Shown here in pieces: positions 11,542-51,372 of a stretch of DNA of 64,000 nucleotides (positions are counted from its first letter, which is position 1; each line of letters opens with the position of its first letter). The notes beneath the pieces were generated by a model. That model worked only from the letters and a program-made list of their open reading frames with translations, had not been told where the DNA came from and did no database searches. The DNA comes from an uncultured archaeon (GTDB lineage: Archaea > Aenigmatarchaeota > Aenigmatarchaeia > Aenigmatarchaeales > DAIDAN01), in the NCBI GenBank assembly GCA_964545795.1, contig CAZJGC010000002.1:1929-65928 (forward strand), in the 5' to 3' direction. The translations under genes and the position numbers were made by a program.

Positions 11542-11545
11542 TGTT

Positions 11546-14477: not shown

Positions 14478-15272
14478 ATGCAGTTAAATTTGTTAATAAG
14501 AAAAATCAAAAATATTGAAATACAGGGCGCAAAAGAAATAGCAATAGAGAGTTTGAAATTTCTTAAAACATTTGCATTAAAAAATGGTTTTGGAAAAAAA
14601 TTTGATGTTGTTTGCAAAGAACTTGAGAGCGCAAGACCTACTGCTGTGGTTCTTCATAATTGTATTGAAATAATAAAGAAGGAAAGGAGTATTGAGGCAA
14701 TAGACAAACTGCTTGAACAACTGCAAACTGACAATATATCAAAGCATGGATTAAAGGTAATCAGAAAGAAATCTGTTATAATGACTCATTGTCATTCTTC
14801 TGAGGCAATATCTCTTATAAAAAAGACAATGCCAAAAAAAGTCTTTGCAACTGAAACAGACCCGAAAGAGCAGGGAGTAAAAACGGCAAAAGAGTTGGCA
14901 AAAGAAAAAGTTTCCGTTGTTTTAATAATAGATTCTGCTTCAGGGTTTTTCATGCCTGAAGTTGATTATGTAATTGTAGGAGCCGATGCAATCAGAAAAG
15001 AAGGTGTTGTAAATAAAATTGGCACATACCCTTTAGGTGCGCTTGCAAAGGAACATAAAAAGCCGTTTTATGTTGTTGCCGATAGTTTAAAAATTGATAC
15101 ACGCAGGAATTTTGTAATAGAAGAACGGCCTGCTGAAGAGGTGCATAAAAAAATAAAGGGGGTAAAAATCAGAAACCCGGCTTTTGATATAACTCCATGG
15201 AAGTTTGTTACAGGCGTTATTATGGAAAGTGGTGTTTTTAAGCCGGTAAAAATAAAGGAGATGATAAAATGA
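14478..15272 (+). CDS. Ribose-1,5-bisphosphate isomerase (eIF-2B alpha/beta/delta family)
   Basis: eIF2B-like fold. It overlaps the rbcL start with ATGA and sits in an operon with RuBisCO and AMP phosphorylase. Confidence 0.7.
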   Translation: MQLNLLIRKIKNIEIQGAKEIAIESLKFLKTFALKNGFGKKFDVVCKELESARPTAVVLHNCIEIIKKERSIEAIDKLLEQLQTDNISKHGLKVIRKKSVIMTHCHSSEAISLIKKTMPKKVFATETDPKEQGVKTAKELAKEKVSVVLIIDSASGFFMPEVDYVIVGADAIRKEGVVNKIGTYPLGALAKEHKKPFYVVADSLKIDTRRNFVIEERPAEEVHKKIKGVKIRNPAFDITPWKFVTGVIMESGVFKPVKIKEMIK

Positions 15273-16486: not shown

Positions 16487-16539
16487 AATTTGGGTTTGCA
16501 AGAAAAATCTTTTAAAGCCGCAAATTAATTAATTGATAG

Positions 16540-16896
16540 GTGGTATCTTTGAAAAACATAAAAATCTCAAAATGGGATGTTTTTGCAGTTCTTGGGTTGG
16601 CGGCATTTATAATTATTATGTCAGTTCTTGTTTATGCTCCAAAAGGCGAATGCGAGGTTGCAAGGCCCGGATACAAGTGCGCATCTGCAAAAAGTGTTAT
16701 GATAGAAAACTGCAATTACTGGGGAAAATATGCATGCAACACATCTGCAGATGTCAGCCTGCCTCAGGTGGAATGGTATATTGGAAATTTGTGCAAAATA
16801 GCAAATGAAAATCATGGGTATGGCTATGAGTGCGCAAATCTAAAACTTGCATGCAATCAGGTAACAGGAAAACAGGTTTGTCCGGTGGGAATATGA
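16540..16896 (+). CDS. Small Cys-rich secreted or membrane-anchored protein of unknown function
   Basis: N-terminal hydrophobic helix AVLGLAAFIIIMSVLVYA followed by 10 Cys. GTG start. The stop overlaps the deoA ATG (ATGA). The alternative frame 16533..16808 is rejected. Confidence 0.5.
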   Translation: MVSLKNIKISKWDVFAVLGLAAFIIIMSVLVYAPKGECEVARPGYKCASAKSVMIENCNYWGKYACNTSADVSLPQVEWYIGNLCKIANENHGYGYECANLKLACNQVTGKQVCPVGI

Positions 16897-18434
16897 AATT
16901 GTCAGCAAAGCCATTAAGTCTTGAAGTTGGAGACAAGAATGTAGTTGTTATTAACAGGAAAGACGCAGATTTTCTTGATTTGCATGCTCTTGAAAGGGTT
17001 AAATTAAAGTTTAAAGGAAATGAAATGGTTGCGATAGTAAATATAACAGACAAGTTTGTTAATGAAGGGGAAATAGCCACAAGCAATGAAATAAATTCTT
17101 TTTTTGGATTAAAAAAAGGAGATAAAATTTCTGTGTCAATAGAGAAAGAGCCTGATTCTGTTATTTTCATAAAACAAAAAATTGCAGGGCATAAGCTCAA
17201 CTATGAACAGATTGAGTCCATTGTCAGGGATGTTGTAAGCAAAAAACTTTCAGGCATAGAAATATCATCATTTTTGACAGCCCTTTATATCCGCGGCATG
17301 AGCAGAGATGAAGTTGAATATTTATCAAGAGCAATGATAAACAATGGAAAAAAACTGAATTTTGGAAATAGCGTTGTTGATAAACATTCTATAGGAGGCG
17401 TGCCCGGAGACAAAACTTCAATAGTTCTGGTTCCTGTGATTGCGTCTGCAGGGCTTATAATACCAAAGACATCTTCGCGGGCGATAACATCTGCAGCAGG
17501 AACAGCAGACAGAATGGAAGTGCTTGCAAACGTTGAGTTTGATTCTAAAGAAATAGTCAGAATTGTCAAAAAAACAAACGGTTGCCTTGTATGGGGAGGC
17601 GCGCTTGACCTTGCTCCTGCTGATGATGAATTTATAGAGGTTGAGTTTCCTCTTGGCATAGACCCGCTTTTACTGCCTTCTATAATGTCAAAGAAGAAGT
17701 CTGTTGGGGCAAAATATGTTGTTATTGACATACCTACAGGCAGCGGCGCAAAGATTAAGACGGTAGATGATGCCAAAATTTTGTCAGAGGAATTCATAGA
17801 GCTTGGCAAGAAATTTAACATGTCAGTTGTTTGCGGCATTACTGTTGGCGAGCAACCTATAGGATATAATATAGGGCCTGCTCTTGAAGCAAAAGAGGCT
17901 CTTGAAACAATAATGGGAAGAGGTCCAAAAGACCTTGTAGAGAAGGTTTCGCAACTTGGAGGCATAATATTTGAAATGACAGGAAAGGGAAATTATGATG
18001 ATGTTCTGAGAATTATAAAAACAGGAAAAGCTGAAAGGAAGTTCAGGCAAATAATTGCTGAGCAGGGAGGGAATCCGAAAATAAAACCTTCTGATATAGT
18101 TATTGGAGACAAAATCTTTGATGTTCGTTCAAGAAGGTCAGGAAAGGTGCTGCAAATAAAAAATATGGAAATAGCAAAAACCGCAAAAATGGCGGGTTCG
18201 CCTAAGGACAAAGGTGCAGGTGTGAGATTGCACAAAAAACTTGGAGATATTGTTAAGAAAGGCGAAAAATTGTTTACAATTTATGCTGAGAATACAATAA
18301 AGCTTAACAGGGCAGTGAAGTTTGCAAGAGAGTATGAACCTGTTGTGGTAGGCAGCTTGCTTAAAGGAAAAATACTTATTGACAGGTTTCCTTCTGATGT
18401 TTTGAATGCAAAAACTGTTTTTCTGGAGAGATAA
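16893..18434 (+). CDS. deoA: AMP phosphorylase (thymidine phosphorylase family)
   Basis: GGVPGDKTSIVLVPVIASAG and an N-terminal extension, as in archaeal AMPpase. The real start is probably the ATG at 16893 (MKLSAKPLSL). Confidence 0.8.
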   Translation: MKLSAKPLSLEVGDKNVVVINRKDADFLDLHALERVKLKFKGNEMVAIVNITDKFVNEGEIATSNEINSFFGLKKGDKISVSIEKEPDSVIFIKQKIAGHKLNYEQIESIVRDVVSKKLSGIEISSFLTALYIRGMSRDEVEYLSRAMINNGKKLNFGNSVVDKHSIGGVPGDKTSIVLVPVIASAGLIIPKTSSRAITSAAGTADRMEVLANVEFDSKEIVRIVKKTNGCLVWGGALDLAPADDEFIEVEFPLGIDPLLLPSIMSKKKSVGAKYVVIDIPTGSGAKIKTVDDAKILSEEFIELGKKFNMSVVCGITVGEQPIGYNIGPALEAKEALETIMGRGPKDLVEKVSQLGGIIFEMTGKGNYDDVLRIIKTGKAERKFRQIIAEQGGNPKIKPSDIVIGDKIFDVRSRRSGKVLQIKNMEIAKTAKMAGSPKDKGAGVRLHKKLGDIVKKGEKLFTIYAENTIKLNRAVKFAREYEPVVVGSLLKGKILIDRFPSDVLNAKTVFLER

Positions 18435-22545: not shown

Positions 22546-22611
22546 CATTAATATCACTATACCTATAATATTAATAAAACTTATAATAATTATTGTTTGA
22601 GGTAGTATTTT

Positions 22612-24831
22612 ATGGTTTTTGAAACTGAGATAAAGGACGGAATATTGAAAATAAATTGTCTTGGTTCAATATACGGTGCAAGCATAGAAGATTCCGACGT
22701 GCTTATGGCAAGAGTTATAGATAATTTGATTTCTGAGCCTTCTATAAGGGGTATTATTCTTGCAGAATCAAGAGAATATGAATACAACACCCAACAAACA
22801 AAGATGCTTGTAGAAATAGCAAAAGCCATAACAACAATTTTAAGGGAAAGAAGACTTATATCCATAAAAAAGTTCCCTAAGGGTTGCGACAGGCTAATAT
22901 CTGTGTGGTATGGGTGGCTGCAGAATCTTATTACAATACAGTTGCGTTCAGACCCCGTAGGAGCTTATGTGAACCTTATCAGGGAGATAAGACATACAAC
23001 CATAAAGAAGGATAGGTGCAGGGAGGAGTATCTTAAAAATATATTGCTTCCGATAAAAGAGATTCTTGAGCAATGCTCTCTTATACAGTTGGTAAAACCC
23101 CATATAAGCGGTTATAATGTAGGCAACAGGGCAGTTTATAGAGAAATCTTTCATCCTACAATTAGACCCAATTTTATGTATACAAAATACATGGCAACCC
23201 CGCCTCCAGGAGAGGCAATAGAAAGATATGAAATAGGAAATGTTGAAATAAGTATATATAAGGTTCCCGGGCATGTAAGATATTTTTATCATGTTGTGCC
23301 TCCTGAGTTCAATCTTGCTGAAGATGAATATATATTGCTGGATGGCGCGCGCAGGATTTTGGAAGAAAGGCGCCCAAGAGAGTTTGAGACAAAAGACCAG
23401 GAGAAGATGAGAGAAATATTTAACAATATTGGGATTGAACTGCTGAGAGATTTGGCTGAACAAAGCGGAAAAAACTTCACTCCTCTTCAGATAAAAAAAC
23501 TTGCATCAATACTTACAAGGTATACGGCAGGTCTTGGTATATTAGAGATAATTCTTTCTGATGAAAAAATACAGGATGTTTTTGTTAATAGTCCGCTTGG
23601 TGAAATTCCTGTATATGTTTATCATAATGATTACGGCGAGTGCGAAACCAACCTTATACCAACAAGGGTAGATGGTGAAAGATGGGCAACAAGATTCAGG
23701 CTTTTGTCTGGAAGACCATTGGATGAGGCAAATCCTGTTCTGGATACAGAAACAAATGCTCCCGGAGGCAGGGCAAGAGTGTGCGCTATTTATCCCAATC
23801 TATCTCCTGAAGGCATGGGAATTTCATTGAGAAGGCACAGGGACAGACCATGGACTCTTCCGTTGTTTATAAATGTCGGCTTCTTGGACCCTTTGTTTGC
23901 AGGTCTTATAAGTTTTGTAACTGATTATGGAAGAACCTTCCTTATAGCAGGCACGCGTTCTTCAGGAAAAACATCATTGCTTGGGGCATGCATGCTTGAA
24001 ATACTTCCAAAACAAAGAATTGTAACTGTTGAGGATACCTTGGAACTTCCTGTCAAAAAACTGCAAAGTCTTGGTTACAACATTGAAAGATTGAAATCGC
24101 GTTCTGTTATAACAAGGGTTGAAACTGAGATGAGCGCAGATGATGCTATAAGAACTGCTTTGCGTATGGGCGACTCTTCATTGATAATAGGCGAAGTAAG
24201 GTCATTGGAGGCTAAAGCTCTTTATGAAGCAATGAGAATAGGAGCTCTTGCAAATGTTGTAGCAGGCACAATACATGGAGAGTCTGCTTATGGCGTATTT
24301 GACAGAGTTGTTAATGATTTAGGTGTTCCTGCAACAAGTTTTAAGGCGACAGACCTTGTGATAATATGCAATAAGATAAGAAGCGCTGACGGTCTTAAAA
24401 CTTTCAGAAAGGTCACAGAAGTCACAGAAGTCAGAAAACACTGGAAGAATGACCCTGTTGAAGAGGGAGGTTTTGTAAACCTTATGGAATATTCTTCAAA
24501 ATTAGGCATGCTCAAGCCAACTCCAACTTTTTTGAATGGCGAGAGTTTTATGTTGAATGAAATATCAAAACGCGTAAGAGAGTGGTCAGGCAATTGGGCT
24601 GCCGTTTGGGAAAACATAAACTTGCGTGCGAGAATATACAAATCAATAGTTGATATTGCAAAATCAACAAACAAGCCTGAACTTATGGAAGCAGAGAACA
24701 CTGTAAAAAGCAATGAAAAGTTTCATTTGTTGTCTGAGAGGTCCAGAATAGAGACAGGTTTTATTGATGCCGAACTTGTTTATAAAGAGTGGCTTGAGTG
24801 GTTCAAAAAACTTGCAAAAAGTCAGAGATGA
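22612..24831 (+). CDS. Type II/IV secretion-family ATPase (archaeal FlaI/TadA/PilB-like), unusually long at 739 aa
   Basis: Walker A AGTRSSGKTS. VTVEDTLELP matches the VirB11/GspE box. RIGALANVVAGTIHGESA. Confidence 0.8.
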   Translation: MVFETEIKDGILKINCLGSIYGASIEDSDVLMARVIDNLISEPSIRGIILAESREYEYNTQQTKMLVEIAKAITTILRERRLISIKKFPKGCDRLISVWYGWLQNLITIQLRSDPVGAYVNLIREIRHTTIKKDRCREEYLKNILLPIKEILEQCSLIQLVKPHISGYNVGNRAVYREIFHPTIRPNFMYTKYMATPPPGEAIERYEIGNVEISIYKVPGHVRYFYHVVPPEFNLAEDEYILLDGARRILEERRPREFETKDQEKMREIFNNIGIELLRDLAEQSGKNFTPLQIKKLASILTRYTAGLGILEIILSDEKIQDVFVNSPLGEIPVYVYHNDYGECETNLIPTRVDGERWATRFRLLSGRPLDEANPVLDTETNAPGGRARVCAIYPNLSPEGMGISLRRHRDRPWTLPLFINVGFLDPLFAGLISFVTDYGRTFLIAGTRSSGKTSLLGACMLEILPKQRIVTVEDTLELPVKKLQSLGYNIERLKSRSVITRVETEMSADDAIRTALRMGDSSLIIGEVRSLEAKALYEAMRIGALANVVAGTIHGESAYGVFDRVVNDLGVPATSFKATDLVIICNKIRSADGLKTFRKVTEVTEVRKHWKNDPVEEGGFVNLMEYSSKLGMLKPTPTFLNGESFMLNEISKRVREWSGNWAAVWENINLRARIYKSIVDIAKSTNKPELMEAENTVKSNEKFHLLSERSRIETGFIDAELVYKEWLEWFKKLAKSQR

Positions 24832-24837
24832 AGCATT

Positions 24838-26916
24838 ATGTTTTCCAATAAGAAAAAGAAGATTGAAAAAAGAATTGAAGAAATAAGAAAAAGACAGATA
24901 AAGAAGGTTCTAAAGGAGATTGAACCTACTGTGGAACTCCCTAAAGAAGAAAAGTTTGAGCCATATTCTATTGATTATAAAAAGTTCTTGGAAGATATAA
25001 AACGAAAACCTGAAACATTTTATGAAAAAGCATGTTTATTTTCCGAGAAGTTGATAAAGGTGAAACCTGATGATTCAACATCAGCAAAACTTAAGCAAGA
25101 CATAACTGCTGCTTATATTACCGCAACACCGGAAGGGGTTATGTCCTTTTCACTTCTGTCATTTTTTGCCATGATGCTCATATCAGTTACAGGCATTTTA
25201 GGAGGCTTTATTAATGCAGGGTTTGGATTGTTTTTGATATTGCTTGGAGGAGGTATTTCATATTTTATATACACTTACCCATCCACGCATGCAAGGTCCC
25301 TGCAGGCGAAAATGAGTTCTGAGATTGTGCTTGCTATTTTATATATGGTAATTTACATGCGCAATAATCCAAACATAGAAGGGGCTGTAAAATTTGCTTC
25401 AAAGAATCTTTCAGGACCTTTGAGCTGGGATTTGAAAAAAATTATGTGGGATGTTGAACTTGGAACATATAGTTCTATAGATGAAGCCTTTTCGTTTTAT
25501 CTGACAAAATGGAAGGACAAAAATGAGGAATTTTCAGAAGCTCTGCATATATTAAAGGCAAGCACTTCAGAATCTGAATCAAGAAGAACAGCAATGCTTG
25601 ACGAAGCAATAAATGTGATACTTGAGGGAACAAAAGAAAGAATGAAACATTATGCTCAGGGTTTAAGATTGCCAGTTATGCTTATACATGCTATGGGAGT
25701 TTTGCTTCCTGTAATAGGGCTTATAATGTTTCCTATAATTGTTCTTTTCATGCAGGATGTGATAAAGCCCGTTTTTATTTTCATAGGATATGATATAGCG
25801 CTCCCTGTATTTTTATATCTGTATATGAACTATATTTTGCAGACAAAGCCTCCAACGTTTTCGCAGCCAGACACAACCAAAAGCAAAGGCATACCGCCCA
25901 TAGGAAAATTCTCATTGTTTGGGAAAAACATACCTATACTTCCTATATCGCTTATTATTGGGCTTATAATAATAAGCATAGGATTTGCAGGCATAGGCAC
26001 AGCAGATGTTGCAACTTCAGTAAACTACTCTATTATTGTAGTTATAGGAATATGCGTTTCTGTAATAGTGTATTGTTATCTTGACAGTTATCAGAAAATC
26101 AAAATAAGAAATGATATTGAGAAAATAGAGAATGAATTTTCTGAGGCGCTGTTCCAGCTTGGAAACAGCATTGCAGGAGGAACGCCCATAGAAGTTTCTG
26201 TTGACAGGGCTGTTGAAAATCTTAAAAATATGAAAATTTCCGATTTGTTTCTTATCTCAAGCATGAATATGAAAAAGCTTGGCATGACTTTTGAGCAGTC
26301 GCTGTTTGACAAGGAATACGGGGCTATTCAGCAGTATCCATCAAAACTCATACATTCAATAATGCAAACCATTATAGAATCTTCCAGAAAAAGCGTAAAA
26401 ATAGCGTCGTTGTCCATGCTTACAATATCGCATTATTTGAAAGGGATGCATAATGTCAAGGAAGAAATAAATGAAATTCTTGGTGAAACTGTAACAAGCA
26501 TGAAATTCTTGGCATTGTTTCTTGCTCCTATGATAGCCGGTGTTACTGTTAGCATGGCTGTTGTAATAATACAGATACTTACATCCATTTCTACCCAGCT
26601 TTCAACTCTTGCTTCTGCACCAGACCTTGCAGGAGGGTTGCAGGGATTAGTGTTATTTGGATGGAATCAAGGAGGAACAGGACCTCCGATAGAGCCTGCC
26701 GCCTTCCAGCTTATAGTCGGCATTTACATGCTTCAGACAGCATTGCTCTTGTCGTATTTTATAAACAGGATACAGTATGGCGAAGATGCAATAGGATTAA
26801 GAAACGTTATATGGCAGACATTGATATTTGCGGCAATAATATATGCATTGAGCTGGTTTGTAACTTATAATATGTTTGGCGGACCAATAAAGAGTTTATT
26901 GAATCCAATAACGTAA
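24838..26916 (+). CDS. FlaJ/TadC-like polytopic membrane platform protein
   Basis: 692 aa with many TM helices. Immediately downstream of the ATPase, with a 6-nt gap. Confidence 0.7.
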   Translation: MFSNKKKKIEKRIEEIRKRQIKKVLKEIEPTVELPKEEKFEPYSIDYKKFLEDIKRKPETFYEKACLFSEKLIKVKPDDSTSAKLKQDITAAYITATPEGVMSFSLLSFFAMMLISVTGILGGFINAGFGLFLILLGGGISYFIYTYPSTHARSLQAKMSSEIVLAILYMVIYMRNNPNIEGAVKFASKNLSGPLSWDLKKIMWDVELGTYSSIDEAFSFYLTKWKDKNEEFSEALHILKASTSESESRRTAMLDEAINVILEGTKERMKHYAQGLRLPVMLIHAMGVLLPVIGLIMFPIIVLFMQDVIKPVFIFIGYDIALPVFLYLYMNYILQTKPPTFSQPDTTKSKGIPPIGKFSLFGKNIPILPISLIIGLIIISIGFAGIGTADVATSVNYSIIVVIGICVSVIVYCYLDSYQKIKIRNDIEKIENEFSEALFQLGNSIAGGTPIEVSVDRAVENLKNMKISDLFLISSMNMKKLGMTFEQSLFDKEYGAIQQYPSKLIHSIMQTIIESSRKSVKIASLSMLTISHYLKGMHNVKEEINEILGETVTSMKFLALFLAPMIAGVTVSMAVVIIQILTSISTQLSTLASAPDLAGGLQGLVLFGWNQGGTGPPIEPAAFQLIVGIYMLQTALLLSYFINRIQYGEDAIGLRNVIWQTLIFAAIIYALSWFVTYNMFGGPIKSLLNPIT

Positions 26917-26927
26917 AAATGAATTAG

Positions 26928-28559
26928 TTAAATCTGCTTTAAGACATAATTTTCTCCTGCAGTGAAGTTTGTTTTAAAGTATAGATTTTCAAAATCGGTT
27001 GTTCCTTTCTTTACAATTTTTATGGTGTTGTCAGTTAATTTTATTACTGCTTCAAAATCAGATATTGTAAATTTGTAGTTTCCTGTATAGGAGCAAGACC
27101 ATGATTCAGATGTTGAATATCTTTTGCTGTGCGAATATGCGTCACAGTCGCGGTAACATTTGAATAGAGTGCAGACAAGTTCCCATGAGCAGCAACTTCC
27201 TGTTCTGCAGCTTCCGCTTCTGCTGCATGAATATTTGTATTCATAATAATTTTTCTTTCCCCAATTATATGTGTTGTGATATTTTTTGTGAGAATAACTG
27301 TAACCGCTTATTCCGCATCCGCATGAGCCTGAATATGACAAGTCCTCGTAATTATATGCGCATGTTCCTGATATTTTATTGCCTGTTCTTAGATAATGGC
27401 TGCCTGCACAACCATTGTAAAAATTCTTTGGAGTCTTGTAATCATATAATTGCCATGTTTTTGAGAAAGATGGATTAATTTCTATGCTGATATCAATGCC
27501 ATTCAGATATTCATTAGTGAAAACAGATTTCAATGATGATATAATGTTGTTGATTTTTGAATCCAATCTTATCCAGTCAGTGTCTTTAACTGCTTTCTGC
27601 GCTGTGCAGCTCACTGTTTTTCTTCCTTCTGAGCAGTCGCTGCTTCCAGAGTATGATTGGGTTTCGGTGTATGTTCCTTGAAAGTCATTTATGCCTGCCA
27701 AGCCTTCACTGCTTCCAATTCCGCATAGAAGAGAATATCTGAACATATTGTCTATGCGCACATGAATTCTGCCTCCGGAGACAAAACCTGCATACTTTCC
27801 CGGGTTTTTGCTGTTGGTTATTCCTTCACATTCTGTCTTTAAACTGTTAACTTCATTCACGTTAAAATTAATGTTTTTTATTTTGCAGCCATCCACGCCT
27901 GATGATGAGAGCAAAGAGTTTGAAATATGCTTTTCGGCATTTCCATCATTGTCGCAGTCAAAATCTCCAGAGTTTACGTAAATTTTGTTAGAATCCCGGA
28001 CATATGTTCCGTTGGCATAGAACCTTCTTGAGAGTTTTGCAATTTTTAGATATCTTATTGGTTTTTTTATTTCCACTGTTCCTTTAAGATATGACTTTAT
28101 AATAGATTTTTTTCTTTCAAATGAAAAGGATTGCGGCTTCATTGTTGTAGTTATTATATAATCAGAAACAATTGTGTTTATATTGGAAGGAGGAGTAACT
28201 TTTATTCTTCCCCCGTTGCCTATAAATTCAGGATAGCTTGTTATTTTTCCTTTAAGTGTTTCTTTAAATTTGTTTTTAATTTCTTCTATGCTTGGCAGAT
28301 TTGCATGCCAGTTGCATTCAAAACCTCCGCACTTTTCTCCCAATTCCTTTGCGGTAATTTCAGTTACTATCTTAAGAAATTCATTCATATTTTTTTCTGA
28401 TAGATAATAGTAGTTTATTGTGGATAAACCGCCTGCAATTCTGTCAGACAATTTCATTTCTGTGCTGCTGTAAAAATTATGAAGGAAGATAAGGATAAAA
28501 CCTATTATTATTGCGCCTATCAAAACGCCTACTGTAATAATCGGAGCAACACCTTTCAT
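26928..28559 (-). CDS. Large Cys/Tyr/Ser-rich surface protein with a prepilin-like N-terminus
   Basis: MKG|VAPIITVGVLIGAIIIGFILIF. 543 aa. C-terminal CxC/CGC clusters. Confidence 0.5.
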   Translation of the reverse strand: MKGVAPIITVGVLIGAIIIGFILIFLHNFYSSTEMKLSDRIAGGLSTINYYYLSEKNMNEFLKIVTEITAKELGEKCGGFECNWHANLPSIEEIKNKFKETLKGKITSYPEFIGNGGRIKVTPPSNINTIVSDYIITTTMKPQSFSFERKKSIIKSYLKGTVEIKKPIRYLKIAKLSRRFYANGTYVRDSNKIYVNSGDFDCDNDGNAEKHISNSLLSSSGVDGCKIKNINFNVNEVNSLKTECEGITNSKNPGKYAGFVSGGRIHVRIDNMFRYSLLCGIGSSEGLAGINDFQGTYTETQSYSGSSDCSEGRKTVSCTAQKAVKDTDWIRLDSKINNIISSLKSVFTNEYLNGIDISIEINPSFSKTWQLYDYKTPKNFYNGCAGSHYLRTGNKISGTCAYNYEDLSYSGSCGCGISGYSYSHKKYHNTYNWGKKNYYEYKYSCSRSGSCRTGSCCSWELVCTLFKCYRDCDAYSHSKRYSTSESWSCSYTGNYKFTISDFEAVIKLTDNTIKIVKKGTTDFENLYFKTNFTAGENYVLKQI

Positions 28560-28563
28560 GAAA

Positions 28564-29055
28564 TCACGCTACGTACAATACAAGCCAATACTTTCCGGGA
28601 AGCACTGGTATTGAATCTCTCATGCCATAAGGCACTTTGTTAAAGTCTTTGTCTTCGCTGTTTTTTGCAAGGGTTTTTATGTCAGGCCCATAAAGGAACA
28701 GCCAGTATTTTTTTCCTTTATAAACATAGTCAATATATTTTTTTGCAACTGCTTTCAAGTCATAATCGCACAGGTCATCGGCGCAACCTGATTTTGGAAC
28801 TTTGGGTTTCAATGTGTCTTCATACAAGGCATATACAAGCGCTCTTTTGAATGTTATGCCATTGCTGTCTTTCATCTCCATCAGAGATAAAAGCGCATCC
28901 TGAACAGACACAGGTTCATATATTATATCAACTATTAGTTTTTTGGTTATTTTGACATTCAAAATATGACCTGCTCCTATGACAGCGGCAAAAAAAGCAG
29001 CTACAACAATAATGACAATGAGTGTGATTACCGAAATAACTATGGCTTTTTTCAT
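28564..29055 (-). CDS. Pilin-like protein
   Basis: MKKA|IVISVITLIVIIVVAAFFAAV N-terminus. Confidence 0.45.
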   Translation of the reverse strand: MKKAIVISVITLIVIIVVAAFFAAVIGAGHILNVKITKKLIVDIIYEPVSVQDALLSLMEMKDSNGITFKRALVYALYEDTLKPKVPKSGCADDLCDYDLKAVAKKYIDYVYKGKKYWLFLYGPDIKTLAKNSEDKDFNKVPYGMRDSIPVLPGKYWLVLYVA

Positions 29056-29057
29056 GT

Positions 29058-29999
29058 TCATGCGCACCCTGCTTCTATTATTGCTTTCTTTCCTATTATG
29101 TTCTTTGCAGTTATTTTTATGTTGTTTACAGTAATGGTTTTGCCTTTTTCAATTTCATGGTATTTGTCTATGCCTTCCATAACAGTTTCGCCGTTTTCCC
29201 TTACTTCAATCAGCACTGAAATATCGCTTGAAGCATTGTAAAATACTTCATAGTTTTTTGAGTTGCATGTTCCTGAAAAAACGGTGTCTCCGTATGACAG
29301 CCTTTTGCCCAGCACAAGGCAGCAGTCTATGTCTGGTTTGCAGCCGTTGCTTCCGCACTTTGGATTGCAGACGTCATCCTGCTTGCATATTTCAGTGCAT
29401 GAGTAGGCTGGTCTGCAGTAGTCTCCGTTCCATTTGCACCCCATTTTTTCGCATTCCTCTTTTTTAATGCAATTGTAACAATCCGCTCCTTTGTAACCAT
29501 AGCCGCAGTTGCCGGAAGGAGCATATTTTATTACCAGTTTTGCAGGTTCTGTTGAGCCGTCTTCCATTCTAACCAGAGCAGGAAATTCATATTCCGGAGA
29601 ATCAGCTTTTACTGCAGGAGGTATTCTGCCTGTCCTCATGTTCTTTACTCCAAAGTCCCATGATTTATCCTGCGTGGATATTGTGATTACAGAAGCAAGC
29701 AATGAGTCAATGCAGGAGATTCTGTCAAGCTCATTTACAGTGTTTCCATATTTTGCATAACATTCCTGCTGTTTCAGTTTTGTTTCATTAAAAACTCCTT
29801 TCATGTCTGCAAGGCATGGTGCCGAGAGCAGATTTTCTCCAAGGTCTATTGCGAGCCTTTCTTTGCTGTTTTCTCTTATATCTGCTTTGAATTGCGTAAG
29901 AGAAAGTATTCCGAATGCTATAAAGCCAACAAGAATAGCCAATACAGTTATTTTTATAAACATCTCGCTTATTTCCATTTGTCCTTTCAATAATTTCAC
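29058..29999 (-). CDS. Cys-rich pilin-like protein with a KGQ prepilin motif
   Basis: MKLLKGQMEISEMFIKITVLAILVGF resembles the archaeal class III signal peptide, KGQxSxEF. More than 20 Cys. The C-terminal domain is homologous to that of 31270..32799. Confidence 0.55.
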   Translation of the reverse strand: MKLLKGQMEISEMFIKITVLAILVGFIAFGILSLTQFKADIRENSKERLAIDLGENLLSAPCLADMKGVFNETKLKQQECYAKYGNTVNELDRISCIDSLLASVITISTQDKSWDFGVKNMRTGRIPPAVKADSPEYEFPALVRMEDGSTEPAKLVIKYAPSGNCGYGYKGADCYNCIKKEECEKMGCKWNGDYCRPAYSCTEICKQDDVCNPKCGSNGCKPDIDCCLVLGKRLSYGDTVFSGTCNSKNYEVFYNASSDISVLIEVRENGETVMEGIDKYHEIEKGKTITVNNIKITAKNIIGKKAIIEAGCA

Positions 30000-30434
30000 C
30001 TATTTATTCAAACCTATTTTTGTCTTTATGGCTGATTCTACCGTTACATTGTTTATATGGGTTTCAGAGAACATGCAATAGTCATTGACGCAGTCTCCTG
30101 TTATATCCTTTAAATAAACATATGGCAGCGGCGATTTCTGTTCAAACATCAGGTTTGCCCTTTTTGTCAGCTTTCCCACTATTATGTTTATTACAGGATT
30201 TTCTTCAAATACTTTCATGTTATGCGTTACTTTGGGAAAAAATTCAAGAGCATAAAAGTCAGGAGCAAAATTGCTCATTGAAAGCATGCCTGACATATAT
30301 TCCTGCATAATTCTTGCATCTGCATAAGCAAAATATTCCATTAACATAAGTCCTGTTTGAGTTACAAGATAAAAAAATAAAACAAGTATAATTATATCTC
30401 CTGCAAAAATAACAAGGTCGTATATTTCAGACAT
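30000..30434 (-). CDS. Membrane protein, hypothetical
   Basis: N-terminal TM segment DIIILVLFFYLVTQTGLML. Confidence 0.4.
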   Translation of the reverse strand: MSEIYDLVIFAGDIIILVLFFYLVTQTGLMLMEYFAYADARIMQEYMSGMLSMSNFAPDFYALEFFPKVTHNMKVFEENPVINIIVGKLTKRANLMFEQKSPLPYVYLKDITGDCVNDYCMFSETHINNVTVESAIKTKIGLNK

Positions 30435-30548
30435 AATTTCACCTGCTGCCTAAAGCAGTTTAAGCCACATAACAAGACCAAGCACTATTATAATAAATAC
30501 AATTATTCCAACTAACCACAGCAGTTCATCATCTAACATGCAAATCAA

Positions 30549-30806
30549 CTAACAAAATCCGCTTCTCCTGCATATTTTCCTACAATTGTCTGCGTTAGAG
30601 CAGCCGATTTTTTCCATAATGCTGTTTGTAAGTTTCGAGTCTTTGCATCCGTCAATATTCCATTTGCTGCAGGCTGCTGTTCTGTCGGCAAGGCTGCCTG
30701 TGTCTTTAACATTGTTGTTTATTGGATTTATTATGCCAATCAACAATGCAACAAACACTATTAGTGCTATTAAAATTAAAACCAAAAACCTTGCTGAAAG
30801 TTCCAT
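30549..30806 (-). CDS. Small Cys-rich pilin-like protein
   Basis: MELSARFLVLILIALIVFVALLIGI plus 6 Cys. Confidence 0.4.
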   Translation of the reverse strand: MELSARFLVLILIALIVFVALLIGIINPINNNVKDTGSLADRTAACSKWNIDGCKDSKLTNSIMEKIGCSNADNCRKICRRSGFC

Positions 30807-31000
30807 ATTGAAAATTATTTTCTTTTTCTTATAAGTTTAATGCAGAATAAGATTTATGAAGTTGTTTATGTAGTATGAAAGCATTGAAGTCATTTTTCCT
30901 GTTCCGGGAGTGATTATAATCACAATAACTGATATAAGAAAGAAAATGATAAGAACAAGGATAATAATATCTTTAAGCGAACTCACAGGCAGGCTTATTC

Positions 31001-31279
31001 TCATATACAGACACCTATGCTCTTATCGCACTTATTTCTGCATTGTTCATCAATAAAGCATAAACATTGCCCGTTTTTGCAAATGCCGTTTCCAGCGCAA
31101 TCAGAATTTTCTGAACATCCTGCCCTGAACTTAAAGGATTCCTCTGACATTTTTTCTATTGAGCTTGGCTCTTCTTCAGAACCAATAAAAATAGGCGAAT
31201 AAATTCCAGCCAGAACAACTATTGCAACAATTATTGTTATGGCTAACATAAGCATAGACCATGTGACTTTCATTTGCAA
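31001..31279 (-). CDS. Small Cys-rich pilin-like protein
   Basis: TM helix, then a GCSENSDCAGNGICKNGQCLC knot-like domain. Confidence 0.4.
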   Translation of the reverse strand: MQMKVTWSMLMLAITIIVAIVVLAGIYSPIFIGSEEEPSSIEKMSEESFKFRAGCSENSDCAGNGICKNGQCLCFIDEQCRNKCDKSIGVCI

Positions 31280-32799
31280 CTCACTCCTATAAGTGCTTTT
31301 CTATTATTGTAATCTATGTCTTTTACTGATATTTTTATGCTGTCAAATGTTTCTGTTTTCCCTTTGTCAACTATTTTGTTTTTGTATTTTTCTGCATTGT
31401 CTTCAAATACTGTCACTATGATGTTTTCTTGAACAACACCCGAGAGGAATACTTTATAGTATTTTTTATCTGAACATGTCCCTGAAAATATTGGCACGTC
31501 ATTGCTGACATGATATTCGCTTACAGAATAGCTGGTTTTGCATGATGTCCATTCATCTTCCTTTGCGTCCCTGCAGTCAAGATTAAATGTTCCTGCACCT
31601 CCTGCGTAAGATAAACTTATATCAAATGTTTTTGCTTTCCAGCAGAAATTGTCAAATTTAAATTCACATGTTTCCATGTTGTCAATATTGCCGCAATTTA
31701 CACTGGAAGTTTCTTTATCAAGGTCGCAATCTCTGTCCGGATTAGTAACTGCCACAGTTATTTTCGCATTTTCTATTTTTTTATTTGCATAATTATTGAG
31801 TTTGAACTCAAGGCTTGTGTCTTTATCAACAATGCCTTTGTATTTTATTTTTGCGCCTGAAATGTAAATTCCTTCTCCATATTCAATTACCCATTTGTAA
31901 TTTTTGCATTTAAGTTGTAAGTGGTTTTTATCTGTAATCGTCACACCTTCATTCTCTTCATTGCATACAAGCCATTTTGCTTCATTGGACCAGCCCTTTC
32001 CAGATTGTTCATAGCCGCAGGCAATATCATACTTTAACTTGTATACATGAGTGCCTCCTATTGTTGTGTCCAGCAATGGACAGCAGTCTTTTTTATCGTT
32101 TACTTTTGGGCAGTATTCTTTGAAATCAGAGCATTTGTCTGTCACAGAATCTGTGAAAACCTGCGTTAATATTTTGTCAGAGGATTTTTTATCGCAGCTA
32201 AAACCGTATCTGCGTTTGCACAGAACCCATGGCGCAATCTTGCATTCAGTAGCGCATATAGAATATTCTGACCTTCCCATGTCCTTGCATTTTACTTCTT
32301 CGCATCCCCTGTCAAAAGTTATAAAGTCCTTGATTTTGCTGTTAGAAACACCGCTTAATATAATGCTTCCCGGAATAACATAATGTATATAATCTTTGTC
32401 AAGCGGCTTATTTCTTATTAATCCTTCTTTCGTGGCTTCTGACGTGAATAATACGCACCTATCAGATCTGAATTTTTTTATTGAAAAGAACTGGTTTATT
32501 CTTTCTCCGGAATCTTCAACGTAGTCAGACAAGTGCTCGTTTCCATAAGTTCCTTCGTCTGTTGGGTGAAATTCAAATATGCTAACTGGTGTTGTGTCTG
32601 TATCAATTTTTACATGCAGTGCTTTATGCCCCGCGCTTATGCTAATTTCCTTTGAACTTACTCCTTTAAGGATATCAAATATGTTTCCCAAACCTTTTTT
32701 GGATTCATTTCCGTGAGAAACGAAAATAAACCCAAGCACTGCAAGCGCTAAAAAGGCTATTATAATAATAACCAGCGTGTTTGTTGGAAGAGGGTCCAT
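31270..32799 (-). CDS. Large Cys-rich surface protein
   Basis: The N-terminus MDPLPTNTLVIIIIAFLALAV is similar to ELPINTLVVVAIAV of the pilin at 34114. The C-terminal domain is shared with 29058..29999. Confidence 0.5.
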   Translation of the reverse strand: MDPLPTNTLVIIIIAFLALAVLGFIFVSHGNESKKGLGNIFDILKGVSSKEISISAGHKALHVKIDTDTTPVSIFEFHPTDEGTYGNEHLSDYVEDSGERINQFFSIKKFRSDRCVLFTSEATKEGLIRNKPLDKDYIHYVIPGSIILSGVSNSKIKDFITFDRGCEEVKCKDMGRSEYSICATECKIAPWVLCKRRYGFSCDKKSSDKILTQVFTDSVTDKCSDFKEYCPKVNDKKDCCPLLDTTIGGTHVYKLKYDIACGYEQSGKGWSNEAKWLVCNEENEGVTITDKNHLQLKCKNYKWVIEYGEGIYISGAKIKYKGIVDKDTSLEFKLNNYANKKIENAKITVAVTNPDRDCDLDKETSSVNCGNIDNMETCEFKFDNFCWKAKTFDISLSYAGGAGTFNLDCRDAKEDEWTSCKTSYSVSEYHVSNDVPIFSGTCSDKKYYKVFLSGVVQENIIVTVFEDNAEKYKNKIVDKGKTETFDSIKISVKDIDYNNRKALIGVSCK

Positions 32800-32812
32800 T
32801 TAATTTCACCTT

Positions 32813-33562
32813 TTAACCCGTGGTTTTGAATTCATGAATTTTTACTTTAATCACAGGTTTGCCTTTTAAAGGCAAAATACTGTCATCAGGATTATACATA
32901 ATTTCAACAGTATAATCTTTTCCCATTTCCATTTTGCCTTTCCATTTTATCCTGTCGTCTTTTTCCGGGGTGCCTTTGCATCTGTCATAACATTTTTTCC
33001 CTTTGCTTATATCATCATCACTGCTTCCGCAGTCTGAATTTCCCCATTCTCCTTCTTTTGTTTCAGAACCGCAAAGCCTGTTTTGGGCAAGCAGTCCCCA
33101 TATTGTGGTTGTCCATTCGTCCACTACCTTTGTCTTGTCTGTTCCTATGCTCTTTGCATTGCAGTAATCGTCTTTTATTATGCTTAAATCTGCCTGCGTC
33201 TTTGAGGCGTCTGTGCAGTCAAGTTGTTTTGCAATTTTTATTGGGTGGTCAACAAAAAAGTTTGAAAACAACGCGGTTTCCGATTTGCATCTCTTATAAC
33301 ATATTTTCCATGCATACTCAATTGCTTCCCCAATAAGCGCTGATGCTTCATAAGAATCAAAACCATCTTCTGCGTAACTGTTGTAACTGTTTTCAAGATT
33401 GTTTAAATAATTATCCTGCTCGTATTTTGTTGTGTATTTTGTCCAGTCATTTGTTATTGATTCTGTTGAATTTTTGAAAATATTTGTGATTCCAAGGTAT
33501 ATAACCAGCATTAAAATGGCTAAGACAATTATTATAATCGTGCTCATTGTCATTGATTTCAT
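32813..33562 (-). CDS. Cys-rich pilin-like or surface protein
   Basis: The likely start is MKSMTMSTIIIIVLAILMLVIY, not the track start at 33625. Confidence 0.45.
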   Translation of the reverse strand: MKSMTMSTIIIIVLAILMLVIYLGITNIFKNSTESITNDWTKYTTKYEQDNYLNNLENSYNSYAEDGFDSYEASALIGEAIEYAWKICYKRCKSETALFSNFFVDHPIKIAKQLDCTDASKTQADLSIIKDDYCNAKSIGTDKTKVVDEWTTTIWGLLAQNRLCGSETKEGEWGNSDCGSSDDDISKGKKCYDRCKGTPEKDDRIKWKGKMEMGKDYTVEIMYNPDDSILPLKGKPVIKVKIHEFKTTG

Positions 33563-33563
33563 T

Positions 33564-33743
33564 CTAACACCAAAACTTAGCAAGCCATCCTGCTTTTTCG
33601 CATACCATTTTCTTTGCAAATGCATCTATTGTATTTAGTTGGTCAGGAGCGCTTAAAAAGGAAACTATAAAAAATATTATTGCTGCAAGAATAGCCACAA
33701 GTATAAGGGCAACTATTGGGTTAATTACTATATCTCCTTTCAT
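33564..33743 (-). CDS. Small prepilin-like protein (59 aa)
   Basis: Manual translation: MKG|DIVINPIVALILVAILAAIIFFIVSF... Its stop is 1 nt from the next gene's start. Confidence 0.35.
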   Translation of the reverse strand: MKGDIVINPIVALILVAILAAIIFFIVSFLSAPDQLNTIDAFAKKMVCEKAGWLAKFWC

Positions 33744-34113
33744 GAATTCACCATTTCAAAAATATTTTCTTTATTATTGTGAACATATCAGGAACATTCA
33801 AAAATATTGAAGCAACTGCTGTTATTATTGTTAATAAAATTACGAAAAAGATAGCAGCAATAATAATGCTTTTTATGTTTGAAAATACTAATCTCATCCT
33901 ATCAGCACCTTAAACAATCCATGTGATTGGGTATAAAAATATAAAACGCTTATAAGTATGAGTATTCCTGCCAAAGCCAGTGCAAAATACATAATGGTTT
34001 TTATTAATTCTTCGTCCATATTCTTAGTTTGCAAAGTTCTTATTTATAATTGCCGTTATCTTTATATATAATGCTTTTTATTAATTTTTTAATTAATTTT
34101 GGGTGAGATTTCA

Positions 34114-34638
34114 ATGAAAAGGCAAAAAGGAATTGAGCTTCCGATAAATACGCTTGTTGTTGTTGCCATAGCTGTTATAATTCTTCTTGCTGTTGCTGCA
34201 TTCTTTATGGGTGTATGGACTCCAAGCGCAGGAGGAATGCAGGCTCTGGCAGCCAAAAACCGCGCATGCGGTCAGTTAATGAACATTGGTTGTAACGATG
34301 CTACTGAATCCGATATGAGGAGCATAAATTTTGATTTTGATTATGATAACTCTGGCACTACGGCTGATGATAATCTTTACGGCTATTGTAAATATAGTTA
34401 TCCTTCCCTGAGCGGCGGAGAACTTCTAAAGAGTTGCAAAAAGATGTGCGGTTGTCCCGGATATTCTGGTATAGGCACAAGCAGCGGAATTAATACAGGA
34501 GGAGGTTCTGCCGGAGGTTCCGGTTCTGGAGGCTCTGGGACAGGTTCAGGCGGCAGTTCCGGTTCAGGCAGCGGTTCCGGAACAGGAGGCGGAGTATCCG
34601 GAATAAATCTTCCGAATCCTATGCAAGGCGGCAGGTGA
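34114..34638 (+). CDS. Archaeal type IV pilin-like protein with a Gly/Ser-rich C-terminal tail
   Basis: MKRQKG|IELPINTLVVVAIAVIILLAVAAF class-III-like signal. The track start is a TTG about 15 nt upstream. Confidence 0.55.
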   Translation: MKRQKGIELPINTLVVVAIAVIILLAVAAFFMGVWTPSAGGMQALAAKNRACGQLMNIGCNDATESDMRSINFDFDYDNSGTTADDNLYGYCKYSYPSLSGGELLKSCKKMCGCPGYSGIGTSSGINTGGGSAGGSGSGGSGTGSGGSSGSGSGSGTGGGVSGINLPNPMQGGR

Positions 34639-34645
34639 TAAAATA

Positions 34646-35557
34646 ATGAAAATACTTTTGCCTTTTGTTGCGGTTTTGGGTTTAATATTTGTTTTTAGTG
34701 TTTTTGCTGTTGCATTAGATTGCCCACAGACATCATGTTATAATTATATTTCTGGCGGAAAGTTCTTTTCTTTTAAACTTTCAAATTTCAAGGCTAAACA
34801 ATTTTTTTCATGTGATAAAGATTTATGGGGTTCTTCAGAGGTAAAAGGACTTATTAGAGTATGTTGTTATCAAAAGTATGAATTCTGTAAGTATGGTTGC
34901 AAAGATGGTCAATGCCTGCCAAACCCTGAAGTAAAGAATGAAGAATTAGATAGTTATTTGAGTATGCCAGAATTCTCAACTATAAAAGTTTCCGGGAAAA
35001 AAGTAGAATTAAAGTTAAAAGCCGGTGCTAATCTTGTTGGAGGATTTAAGTTTGATATTAATACATTTAAGAACAATGACTGTGAATTGTTGTATTTTAA
35101 TGGTTTTTCTGATACAAAAAACCCTTTTGTATATTATACTCAAGGAGAGTTTAGAAAGACAAATAGTGTTGGCAGAACTTTAAGTACTCTTGGATACTGG
35201 ATACCTCTTAAAAAAGATTGCACAATAACAGTTGATTTGGAGGTTTGGGGTCAAATAAATCTTAAAAGGACTAACGAGAACAAGAATGGTGAAGCGCAGT
35301 TAATATCAGTTCCGTTTGATGTTACAAAGGCGGAATTAGAGAAAGCTGGCTGTAAATTTACTAGATTTAATAAATATTCAACAACTGACAAACCTTTTGT
35401 GTATTGGGACACAACTACTGAAAATGGAGAATTTAAATCCACAGATACGCTCAAAGCTGATGGCAGGGGTTATTGGATTCCTCTTTTAAAAGGCTGCACT
35501 CTGAAAGCAGGGATTGTGTACGCTAACGAAGGAGATGTTAATCAGCCATCAAAATAA
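34646..35557 (+). CDS. Secreted protein with an internal ~100-aa duplication
   Basis: Signal peptide MKILLPFVAVLGLIFVFSVFA. Repeats: KNPFVYYTQGEFRKTNSVGRTLSTLGYWIPLKKDCT and DKPFVYWDTTTENGEFKSTDTLKADGRGYWIPLLKGCT. Confidence 0.5.
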   Translation: MKILLPFVAVLGLIFVFSVFAVALDCPQTSCYNYISGGKFFSFKLSNFKAKQFFSCDKDLWGSSEVKGLIRVCCYQKYEFCKYGCKDGQCLPNPEVKNEELDSYLSMPEFSTIKVSGKKVELKLKAGANLVGGFKFDINTFKNNDCELLYFNGFSDTKNPFVYYTQGEFRKTNSVGRTLSTLGYWIPLKKDCTITVDLEVWGQINLKRTNENKNGEAQLISVPFDVTKAELEKAGCKFTRFNKYSTTDKPFVYWDTTTENGEFKSTDTLKADGRGYWIPLLKGCTLKAGIVYANEGDVNQPSK

Positions 35558-35563
35558 TTAATA

Positions 35564-36103
35564 ATGACTTTGTATTTTATTACAGGGAACAAAAGCAAGT
35601 TTGAGGAAGCCAGCGCAATTCTCCCTGGTATCAGGCAGTTTAATGTTGAATTGCCTGAAATCCAGAGTATTAATGCAAGAGAAATTGTTAAAACAAAACT
35701 TCTTGAAGCAATGAACCATAAAAAAGCTGAATTTATTGTTGAAGACACTTCTCTTTATCTTGATTGCCTTAATGGTTTGCCAGGCCCTTTAATAAAATGG
35801 TTTATGAAAACTATTGGAAATGAGGGGCTATTTAATATAGTTGAAAAGTTTGGAAATCCAAATGCAGAAGCAAAAACTGTTATTGGATATGCAAAAAACC
35901 CTAAGGAGGTTTATTATTTTGAGGGCTCAATCAAGGGGAGAATAGTGTCGCCGAAAGGCAGGTCTGGTTTTGGCTGGGACCCTGTCTTTCAGCCAGAGGG
36001 CTGTTCAAAAACATTTGCTGAAATTACTCAGGAAGAAAAGAACAAAATAAGCATGAGAAGAATTGCGCTTAACAAATTAAAAGAATTTTTAGAATCGTTT
36101 TAA
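35564..36103 (+). CDS. Ham1/RdgB dITP/XTP pyrophosphatase
   Basis: LYFITGNKSKFEEA, FIVEDTSL and GFGWDPVFQP motifs. Confidence 0.8.
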   Translation: MTLYFITGNKSKFEEASAILPGIRQFNVELPEIQSINAREIVKTKLLEAMNHKKAEFIVEDTSLYLDCLNGLPGPLIKWFMKTIGNEGLFNIVEKFGNPNAEAKTVIGYAKNPKEVYYFEGSIKGRIVSPKGRSGFGWDPVFQPEGCSKTFAEITQEEKNKISMRRIALNKLKEFLESF

Positions 36104-50290: not shown

Positions 50291-50291
50291 T

Positions 50292-51368: not shown

Positions 51369-51372
51369 TAAC

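Follow-up and report, generated by a model that had tools for sequence, protein, structure and literature searches.

The stretch of DNA analyzed here, 64 kb of contig CAZJGC010000002.1 from an uncultured archaeon (referred to as the window), carries genes for a secretion ATPase, a polytopic membrane platform and a long series of proteins with N-terminal helices, which together have the anatomy of a probable type IV filament locus. The window is archaeal by its gene content (pelota, archaeal-type PheT, AMP phosphorylase, archaeal glutamate dehydrogenase and SMC), and its GC content is about 35%. The 739-amino acid (aa) and 692-aa open reading frames (ORFs) of the core were found on the plus strand exactly where the original prediction had placed them, and the platform ORF starts 6 nucleotides (nt) after the ATPase ORF. 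A minus-strand operon, running from 34034 to 26928, converges on the platform gene, and its last gene ends 11 nt from the platform stop codon. This operon comprises 13 ORFs (m01 to m13), each with one N-terminal hydrophobic helix, a count that includes ORFs of 32-59 aa because they have good GGTG-type ribosome-binding sites. The existence of such a run of ORFs, and of the plus-strand gene p1 beyond it, had been predicted correctly; the conserved coiled-coil gene that diverges from the ATPase gene had been missed.

The ATPase matched the Pfam family T2SSE (2.5e-18, residues 401-590). The predicted Walker A motif GTRSSGKTS (447-455) and Asp box VEDTLEL (473-479) were both confirmed, and a Walker B motif LIIGEVR (524-530) and a His box GTIH (552-555) were located as well. 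All NCBIfam scores were under their cutoffs, with 127.8 bits for the TadA-family model TIGR03819 (cutoff 373), 125.2 bits for the FlaI model NF058587 (cutoff 550; alignment over residues 211-681) and 58.6 bits for the BasE model NF053672 (cutoff 1000). The best solved relatives were 2oap, named 'Type II secretion system protein' (7e-28), followed by CpaF from Caulobacter and FlaI from Sulfolobus (1.7e-17). Of those N-terminal-helix proteins that were scanned, none showed an archaellin domain, and none of the scanned window ORFs encoded a KaiC-like (ArlH) protein. Since the FlaI score is far under its cutoff and neither archaellin nor KaiC-like protein was found, the 'FlaI-like' label given by the original prediction is too specific. 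A Tad/Flp pilus was also considered and rejected on the TadA-family score and on the lack of any Flp-family pilin match in a Pfam scan of the locus proteins. The first 210-280 residues of the ATPase lie outside the region aligned to family models, and relatives of this part are detectable only within its own clade; residues 1-300 gave no match in the PDB and nothing specific in Pfam or NCBIfam searches. More than 6000 homologs of the ATPase exist, with a length of about 745 aa, and the best 120 listed are 59-82% identical to it. Roughly one tenth of the top homologs are about 1250 aa long and carry an intein (Pfam Intein_splicing and LAGLIDADG_3), as in the related loci L021, L023, L033 and L039, and one ORF of L039 reaches 1778 aa; the window ATPase is free of an intein.

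The platform has about nine predicted transmembrane (TM) segments. T2SSF (PF00482) was matched by 11 of the 18 members of the platform alignment (A1), with a best value of 2.3e-8, and the best PDB match of the platform profile was the cytoplasmic domain of GspF, a weak one (E 0.8). Because 11 of 18 aligned orthologs match T2SSF, we assign the platform to the GspF/TadC/FlaJ type, an identity that is established via orthology and not directly. With tblastn, the divergent coiled-coil gene was recovered in the duplicate contig of the window (L001) and, with identities of 31-55%, in 23 related loci, and in most loci it lies immediately upstream of the ATPase gene on the opposite strand. Its product gave only weak coiled-coil-type Pfam matches, and Pfam, NCBIfam and PDB searches with it returned nothing specific. 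As judged from sequence and gene order, the ATPase, the platform and the 128-aa coiled-coil gene form a module.

Parts of this module recur in 46 loci of DPANN archaea found by genome scanning with the ATPase, in agreement with the conservation that had been proposed as a check. These loci are labelled mostly as Aenigmatarchaeota, Woesearchaeota, Pacearchaeota and Nanoarchaeota, with a few from Micrarchaeota and Iainarchaeum. ATPase identity is ~50-72% under the Aenigmatarchaeota label, 45-66% for Nanoarchaeota, 47-48% for Iainarchaeum and ~43-45% for Woese- and Pacearchaeota, and the best match of the scan is a single Micrarchaeota-labelled contig at 73%. A platform homolog lies directly downstream of the ATPase gene in 33 of 47 loci. 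In the relatives, the platform gene is then followed co-directionally by 8-12 ORFs with N-terminal helices, some small (40-140 aa) and some large (280-630 aa), several of them Cys-rich and many starting with Lys/Arg-Gly. In six Woese- and Pacearchaeota loci the cluster is closed by a Peptidase_A24 gene (46-53 bits, cutoff 26.5), and nothing else speaks as strongly for the conserved module being a genuine type IV filament system. The prediction of a type IV pilus-like machine is thus upheld by the ATPase-platform pairs, the clusters of helix proteins and their A24 ends. The window itself holds the ATPase, a platform recognized by orthology, and candidate class III subunits in p1, m03, m11, m12 and m13. 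We conclude, with a probability of about three in four, that these genes specify a type IV filament (type IV pilus-like) machine of a tiny, presumably symbiotic DPANN archaeon, most likely a member of the Aenigmatarchaeota.

The closest contigs (L048, L049 and L050) keep the order m04-m05-m06-m08-m10-m11-m12-m13 convergent on the platform gene, with 28-54% identity for these genes versus 60% for the platform, and more distant loci keep just m11, the m10-m11 pair and m08-like genes. In L048, the closest relative, an insertion of an AbiEii-type toxin gene and its partner (10758-12031) separates the platform gene from the m13 ortholog. Upstream of the ATPase gene, many relatives (L003, L006, L011, L016, L017, L019, L023, L024, L027, L030, L033, L039, L041 and others) carry tandem arrays of two to four paralogous membrane proteins of ~160-190 aa with at least four, typically about five, TM segments, accompanied by a coiled-coil protein of 210-270 aa, in Aenigmatarchaeota and Woesearchaeota loci alike. 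These tandem proteins of ~170 aa were considered as peptidases and rejected, as they matched neither Peptidase_A24 nor any other Pfam family; no homolog of them was found in the window.

Table 1. Genes of the filament locus, with positions in the window. The arrow marks the class III-type site.
Gene	Product	Position	Strand	Basis and remarks
	Coiled-coil protein, 128 aa	22171..22557	-	tblastn; divergent from ATPase; conserved module accessory
	Secretion ATPase, PilB/TadA/FlaI/VirB11 superfamily, 739 aa	22612..24831	+	Pfam T2SSE, motifs
	Polytopic membrane platform, GspF/PilC/TadC/FlaJ type, 692 aa	24838..26916	+	PF00482 matches of orthologs
m13	Pilin-like, 543 aa, 20 Cys	26928..28559	-	Class III-type N-terminus MKG↓VAPIITVGVL; 7 homologs
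m12	Pilin-like, ~163-167 aa, 2 Cys	28564..29067	-	Lys-Gly/Ala site in orthologs
m11	Cys-rich pilin-like, 313 aa, 18 Cys	29058..29999	-	MKLLKG↓QMEISEMF; orthologs
m10	N-terminal-helix-anchored, 144 aa, no basic leader (MSEIYDLVIFAGD)	30000..30434	-	Orthologs in L048, L050
m09	Hydrophobic ORF, 32 aa, one TM segment, doubtful gene	30450..30548	-	ORF alone
m08	Small Cys-rich pilin-like, 85 aa, 6 Cys, leaderless (MELSARFLVL)	30549..30806	-	Paralog of p1; orthologs
m07	Single-TM ORF, 55 aa	30837..31004	-	TAGGTG ribosome-binding site; positional counterparts in L048, L050
m06	Small Cys-rich with N-terminal helix, 92 aa, 8 Cys	31001..31279	-	Orthologs in L048, L050
m05	Surface protein, 509 aa, 22 Cys, leaderless (MDPLPTNTLV)	31270..32799	-	AlphaFold model, alignments
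m04	Cys-rich, ~249 aa, 8 Cys, probable start MKSMTMSTIIII	32813..33562	-	L050 ortholog
m03	Small pilin-like, 59 aa, MKG↓DIVINPIVALIL	33564..33743	-	FlaFind-type pattern; L050 ortholog
m02	Single-TM ORF, 49 aa	33748..33897	-	AAGGTG ribosome-binding site
m01	Single-TM ORF, 46 aa, first gene of the minus-strand operon	33894..34034	-	ORF
p1	Pilin candidate, 174 aa, MKRQKG↓IELPINTLVVVAIAV	34114..34638	+	Clearest class III signal of the set
p2	Secreted, 303 aa, Sec-type signal, 12 Cys, internal duplication	34646..35557	+	Membership of the system uncertain

The longest possible ORF of m04 reaches 33625 and would overlap m03, and the true start of m12 is probably the methionine of MKKA at 29055. The genes m01 and p1 diverge across an AT-rich region with TATA-like elements; the p1 start is preceded by GGGTGA 8 nt upstream and a TATA-like box ~42 nt upstream, and the same start is used in the public annotation. 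The gap between p1 and p2 is 8 nt, CAGGTGA stands as a ribosome-binding site in front of p2, and the two genes are probably co-transcribed. An AT-rich element of ~25 nt occurs in inverted orientation, 76% complementary, in the promoter region between the coiled-coil and ATPase genes (22564-22588) and in that between m01 and p1 (34067-34091), and a third copy lies inside m01 (33987-34012). This element, shared by both divergent promoters, could be a regulatory site or a chance occurrence in AT-rich DNA. When the borders of the inverted pilin cluster were searched for inverted repeats such as an invertible segment would have, just short AT-rich chance matches were found.

Class III sites were judged by a FlaFind-type regular-expression pattern and by alignments with homologs. 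A basic leader had been predicted for each of the helix proteins, and it is present in m13 (MKG↓V), m12 (KKA↓I), m11 (KG↓Q), m03 (MKG↓D), p1 (KG↓I) and perhaps m04 (MKS↓M), but absent from m05 (MDPLPTN), m08 (MELSAR), m10 (MSEIYD), m06, m01, m02, m07 and m09. When the N-termini were aligned with those of homologs, a comparison by which the original prediction could have been refuted, the Lys-Gly/Ala site before the helix was conserved in the m13, m12, m11 and m03 families, but not in those of m05, m08 and m10. The site of p1 is a textbook one (MKRQKG↓IELPINTL). In the m13 family, K-K-G or Lys-Gly before the helix is conserved with a leader of 2 to ~30 residues, and the long helix is conserved, as is the strand region at the C-terminus, with a hypervariable middle rich in Cys, Ser and Tyr between them; among billions of proteins searched, seven homologs of m13 were found, and a Cys-rich indel of 100 aa is found in three of the eight sequences. 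The m12 orthologs of L048 and L050 (45-54% identity) begin with MKKG↓F and MKG↓Q, and orthologs of m11 with MIFMKG↓QTELSEF and MIMAEA↓DITVF; the m11 family profile also reaches L008, L009, L014, L016, L017 and L020. Both genomes with m03 have MKG before the site, that of L050 reading MKG↓IETMQNTVLL, and the L050 ortholog of m04 (35% identity) begins with MLTMKA↓QSLPINKS.

In the m06 orthologs of L048 and L050, KG↓M precedes the helix, which is not the case in the window copy; m06 gave weak Pfam matches to Pilin_N (0.018) and EGF-like domains, and no component was above the threshold of any Pfam pilin family. The m10 orthologs of L048 and L050 keep the N-terminus MxEIYD..V...GD without Lys/Arg-Gly, and the m10-m11 pair recurs in L020. 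The m08 orthologs begin with MELPMRF and M(ICM)ELPVNTL, and the m08 profile also reaches L023 and L009. No homolog was found for m09, and the position of m07 is taken in L048 and L050 by small ORFs.

A single family of Cys-rich proteins had been proposed, and this was ruled out by all-against-all BLAST of the N-terminal-helix proteins, in which m05 and m11 were the sole linked pair apart from a weak p1-m08 similarity. The link between m05 and m11 lies in a C-terminal beta domain of 75 aa (36% identical, E 6e-7). The helix proteins are, as far as sequence comparison tells, distinct, syntenic and fast-diverging components. The weak paralogs p1 and m08 (BLASTP 1e-4) align such that Met1 of m08 stands at the first residue after the KG↓ of p1, and m08 thus resembles a pilin that starts already 'processed'; since the similarity is partly one of hydrophobic composition, we take this alignment as a lead only. 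Behind its small 6-Cys domain, p1 has a Gly/Ser-rich tail of ~55 aa, which is encoded by imperfect 27-nt repeats at the 3′ end of the gene (34449-34586) and is unusual for a pilin; partial matches to p1 were found in L007, L009 and L050. The two halves of p2 are 42% identical (E 1e-11) and share the motif PFVY...GEF.K...GYWIPL.K.CT; p2 gave no Pfam match, and no homolog was found in related loci.

The predicted richness of the ectodomains in Cys, Tyr and Ser holds for the set as a whole, with 4.5% Cys versus 1.34% in 38 other window ORFs, 5.4% versus 3.2% Tyr and 8.8% versus 5.8% Ser, but at the level of single proteins only 8 of the 15 N-terminal-helix proteins contain at least 3% Cys; m10 and m12 contain just two apiece, and no Cys occurs in m01, m02 and m07. 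All 11 ectodomain proteins that contain Cys have an even number of them (2 to 22), and every Cys lies outside the N-terminal helix, which fits extracellular disulfides. Modelling of the ectodomains by AlphaFold, as had been suggested, gave a confident model for m05 and an unusable one for m13. The m05 model, from a 30-sequence alignment, has a mean predicted local distance difference test score (pLDDT) of 86.3 and a predicted template modelling score (pTM) of 0.73, with helices at residues 6-28 and 31-44 and then four mostly beta domains. The modelled architecture of an N-terminal helix and beta-sandwich domains is as in surface adhesins; fold searches returned generic beta-sandwich matches at the domain level and no specific structural match. 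For m05, 43 relatives were found by profile search of 1.84 billion cluster representatives and 6-7 by word-based search. In the m05 alignment of seven sequences (A2), 14 Cys as well as H62, E76, H78 and H89 are invariant, and Lys/Arg-Gly occurs in none of the N-termini. A cluster of invariant residues in the first beta-sandwich (residues 57-89: G57, K59, A60, H62, V63, E76, F77, H78, G83, G86 and H89) could form a putative metal- or ligand-binding site.

By homology, the hexameric-type ATPase and the GspF/TadC-type platform make up an assembly motor, and the conserved cytoplasmic coiled-coil protein goes with them. We propose that the proteins with class III signals (p1, m03, m11, m12, m13 and probably m04) would be inserted into the membrane and trimmed after Lys-Gly/Ala by a prepilin peptidase presumably encoded elsewhere in the genome, and the motor would then pull the trimmed subunits from the membrane and polymerise them via their N-terminal helices. 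Among the Cys-rich subunits, the small p1, m08, m06 and m03 likely build the filament body, and the large m13, m11 and m04 are likely minor or tip pilins that would display disulfide-stabilised ectodomains. The leaderless m05, m10 and m08 and the tiny ORFs may be membrane-anchored components of the base or adhesins, or filament subunits that enter uncleaved. The ectodomains of m13, m11 and m04 differ strongly between related genomes, and such fast divergence of exposed parts would reflect specificity for a host or an environment. From this anatomy and by analogy with adhesive pili, we infer that adhesion to a surface or a host cell is the most probable role. A wider proposal is at present only tentative and rather unlikely to hold in full: that this is a vertically inherited, DPANN-wide filament machine with a long-form ATPase, of which the fast-diverging, disulfide-rich parts are the host-recognition determinants in Aenigmatarchaeota, and that the leaderless pilin paralogs m08 and m05 are a class not described before, which starts precisely at position +1 of a processed pilin and so joins the filament or its base without cleavage by the prepilin peptidase.

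Several observations weigh against a filament machine. As had been predicted, the 64-kb window contains no recognizable prepilin peptidase: apart from the platform, no window protein has four or more predicted TM segments, and tblastn with A24 peptidases from DPANN archaea returned nothing; nor was a prepilin peptidase found in the closest loci, those of Aenigmatarchaeota. The window platform gave no Pfam or NCBIfam match of its own. In L048 and L050 the ATPase gene does not adjoin the platform gene, which indicates that the two genes need not be physically linked. A cleavage motif is missing from m05, m08 and m10, all of them well-conserved families. The m13 model, from eight sequences, has a pLDDT of 48.9. 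Finally, the N-terminal-helix proteins of related loci are generally enriched in Cys (3.1% versus 0.97%), and together with the precedent in Thermoproteales described below this means that the Cys-richness is real but neither unique nor specific to this system.

Rather than build a long pilus, the same motor might insert and hold a short stalk or raft of class III-signal proteins at the cell surface, in a bindosome-like or pseudopilus display, with the large ectodomain proteins, be they adhesins or binding proteins, as its functional cargo; this has been proposed for the Sulfolobus bindosome. What makes such a display a sensible alternative is the very large size of several class III-type proteins: m13 (543 aa), m11 (313 aa) and m04 (~249 aa) are very long for pilins, yet have conserved class III-type sites. 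The subunits are also numerous and diverse, none of them standing out as an abundant major pilin, and functionalised systems of this kind have been proposed in a 2026 census of archaeal type IV filaments (bioRxiv 10.64898/2026.04.22.720090). However, the score against the BasE model is a small fraction of its cutoff, no substrate- or solute-binding domain was found in any component scanned, and p1, m03, m06 and m08 are small pilin-like subunits from which a filament could well be formed. We therefore regard the display reading as unlikely, and prefer a filament.

A competence-type pseudopilus, in which the machine would mainly import DNA or other macromolecules, whether host-derived or environmental, and so offset a reduced genome, is far less probable. 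It draws on the general versatility of these machines, in that type IV filaments take up DNA during natural transformation and natural competence is reported for ultrasmall Saccharibacteria; no DNA-binding or channel component (ComEA/ComEC-like) was seen among the proteins scanned, and large hypervariable ectodomains suit adhesion better. We give slightly less credit still to coincidence, that is, to helix proteins which are ordinary membrane-anchored or S-layer-associated surface proteins unrelated to the motor. The missing cleavage motif in m05, m08 and m10, the separate ATPase gene of L048 and L050, and the frequency with which these genomes encode Cys-rich proteins with an N-terminal anchor would fit this explanation, but comparable clusters stand beside the platform gene across distant DPANN lineages, six of them ending in an A24 peptidase gene, L048 and L050 have preserved the gene order relative to the platform, and Lys-Gly sites are conserved in four families. 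An archaellum or its remnant, with FlaI/FlaJ (ArlI/ArlJ) as motor and archaellins or ArlF/G-like proteins downstream, is the least credible reading and is rejected, for although some sources label the homologs 'FlaI', most Aenigmarchaeota genomes are listed with FlaG, FlaI and FlaJ (PMC8407114) and the FlaI model aligns over much of the ATPase, the FlaI equivalog score (125 bits) is no better than that of the TadA family (128 bits), the non-archaellum ATPase 2oap is closer than FlaI, neither archaellin nor ArlH was detected in the scans above, and the related loci inspected hold no recognizable archaellum gene set.

Elsewhere in the window, genes for an IF-2B-family protein (ribose-1,5-bisphosphate isomerase-like), a RuBisCO large subunit and AMP phosphorylase stand in a row (14478-18434), which we take to be the archaeal AMP-salvage pathway. 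A defence-type island at 49158-56654 contains UPF0175/helix-turn-helix and DUF3368 proteins, resembling a toxin-antitoxin pair, an unassigned 358-aa gene, a DNA methyltransferase of 832 aa and a BPTD_3080-family restriction endonuclease of 928 aa. Two paralogs of the Ham1 family (non-canonical NTP pyrophosphatase) are encoded in the 64 kb, at 1738-2289 and at 35564-36103, the latter directly after the pilus locus.

To our knowledge, all cultivated DPANN archaea described so far are attached to other cells, and the molecules with which they find and hold their hosts are mostly unknown. In the groundwater that yielded several related genomes, pili-like appendages join ultrasmall cells to their hosts (PMC7906910). 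Given these appendages, the known type IV filament loci of DPANN archaea and the FlaI/FlaJ-like genes of Aenigmarchaeota, the system is largely expected. The locus offers a fairly complete parts list for one lineage, with a conserved motor as a possible target and exposed proteins as candidates for host specificity, and it also yields one confident model (m05) and the oddity of leaderless pilin-like proteins; it is no new type of machine. Of some interest are the long N-terminus of the ATPase, the conserved coiled-coil partner of this protein, the pilin-like paralogs that lack a leader, and the exposed parts for diverging so fast.

When compared with known systems, the locus shares the ATPase and platform superfamilies with the archaellum (ArlI/ArlJ with ArlF/ArlG), but differs from it by missing the FlaI equivalog threshold and by the lack of archaellins and ArlH among the proteins scanned. 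ArlF and ArlG are precedents for pilin-like proteins that retain an uncleaved N-terminal helix. A further likeness is to archaeal adhesive type IV pili (Sulfolobus Aap, Haloferax PilA/PilB-PilC and Methanococcus Epd), which likewise combine an ATPase, a TadC/FlaJ-type platform and several class III pilins, serve the adhesion that we expect here, and usually have their peptidase encoded elsewhere. Unlike in these pili, the ATPase of the window is ~200 residues longer at its N-terminus and has a conserved divergent coiled-coil partner, and there are 13-15 genes for N-terminal-helix proteins, some of 300-540 aa, of which none exceeds the Pfam pilin thresholds. In subclade 4E of Thermoproteales, nearly all components contain multiple conserved cysteines, and fast-evolving small minor pilins occur with large putative adhesins; in subsystem 4A, which some Nanoarchaeota/DPANN are reported to have, accessory genes follow the platform gene (Makarova et al. 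2016, PMC4858521; Sivabalasarma and Albers 2026, preprint). Compared by their published descriptions, the 4E and 4A loci resemble ours in the Cys-rich components and the genes downstream of the platform, and differ in that the window has one fused platform of 692 aa in place of two, and that no PilY-like adhesin was recognized, the matches of m05 being generic beta-sandwich ones. In Saccharibacteria, ultrasmall bacteria that live as episymbionts, type IV pili are reported to be conserved and to have been shown to drive attachment to the host (PMC9894109 and PMC11623550). The DPANN locus would be the counterpart of these pili in a reduced-genome symbiont of the other domain, as a functional analogy within the same superfamily rather than an orthology.

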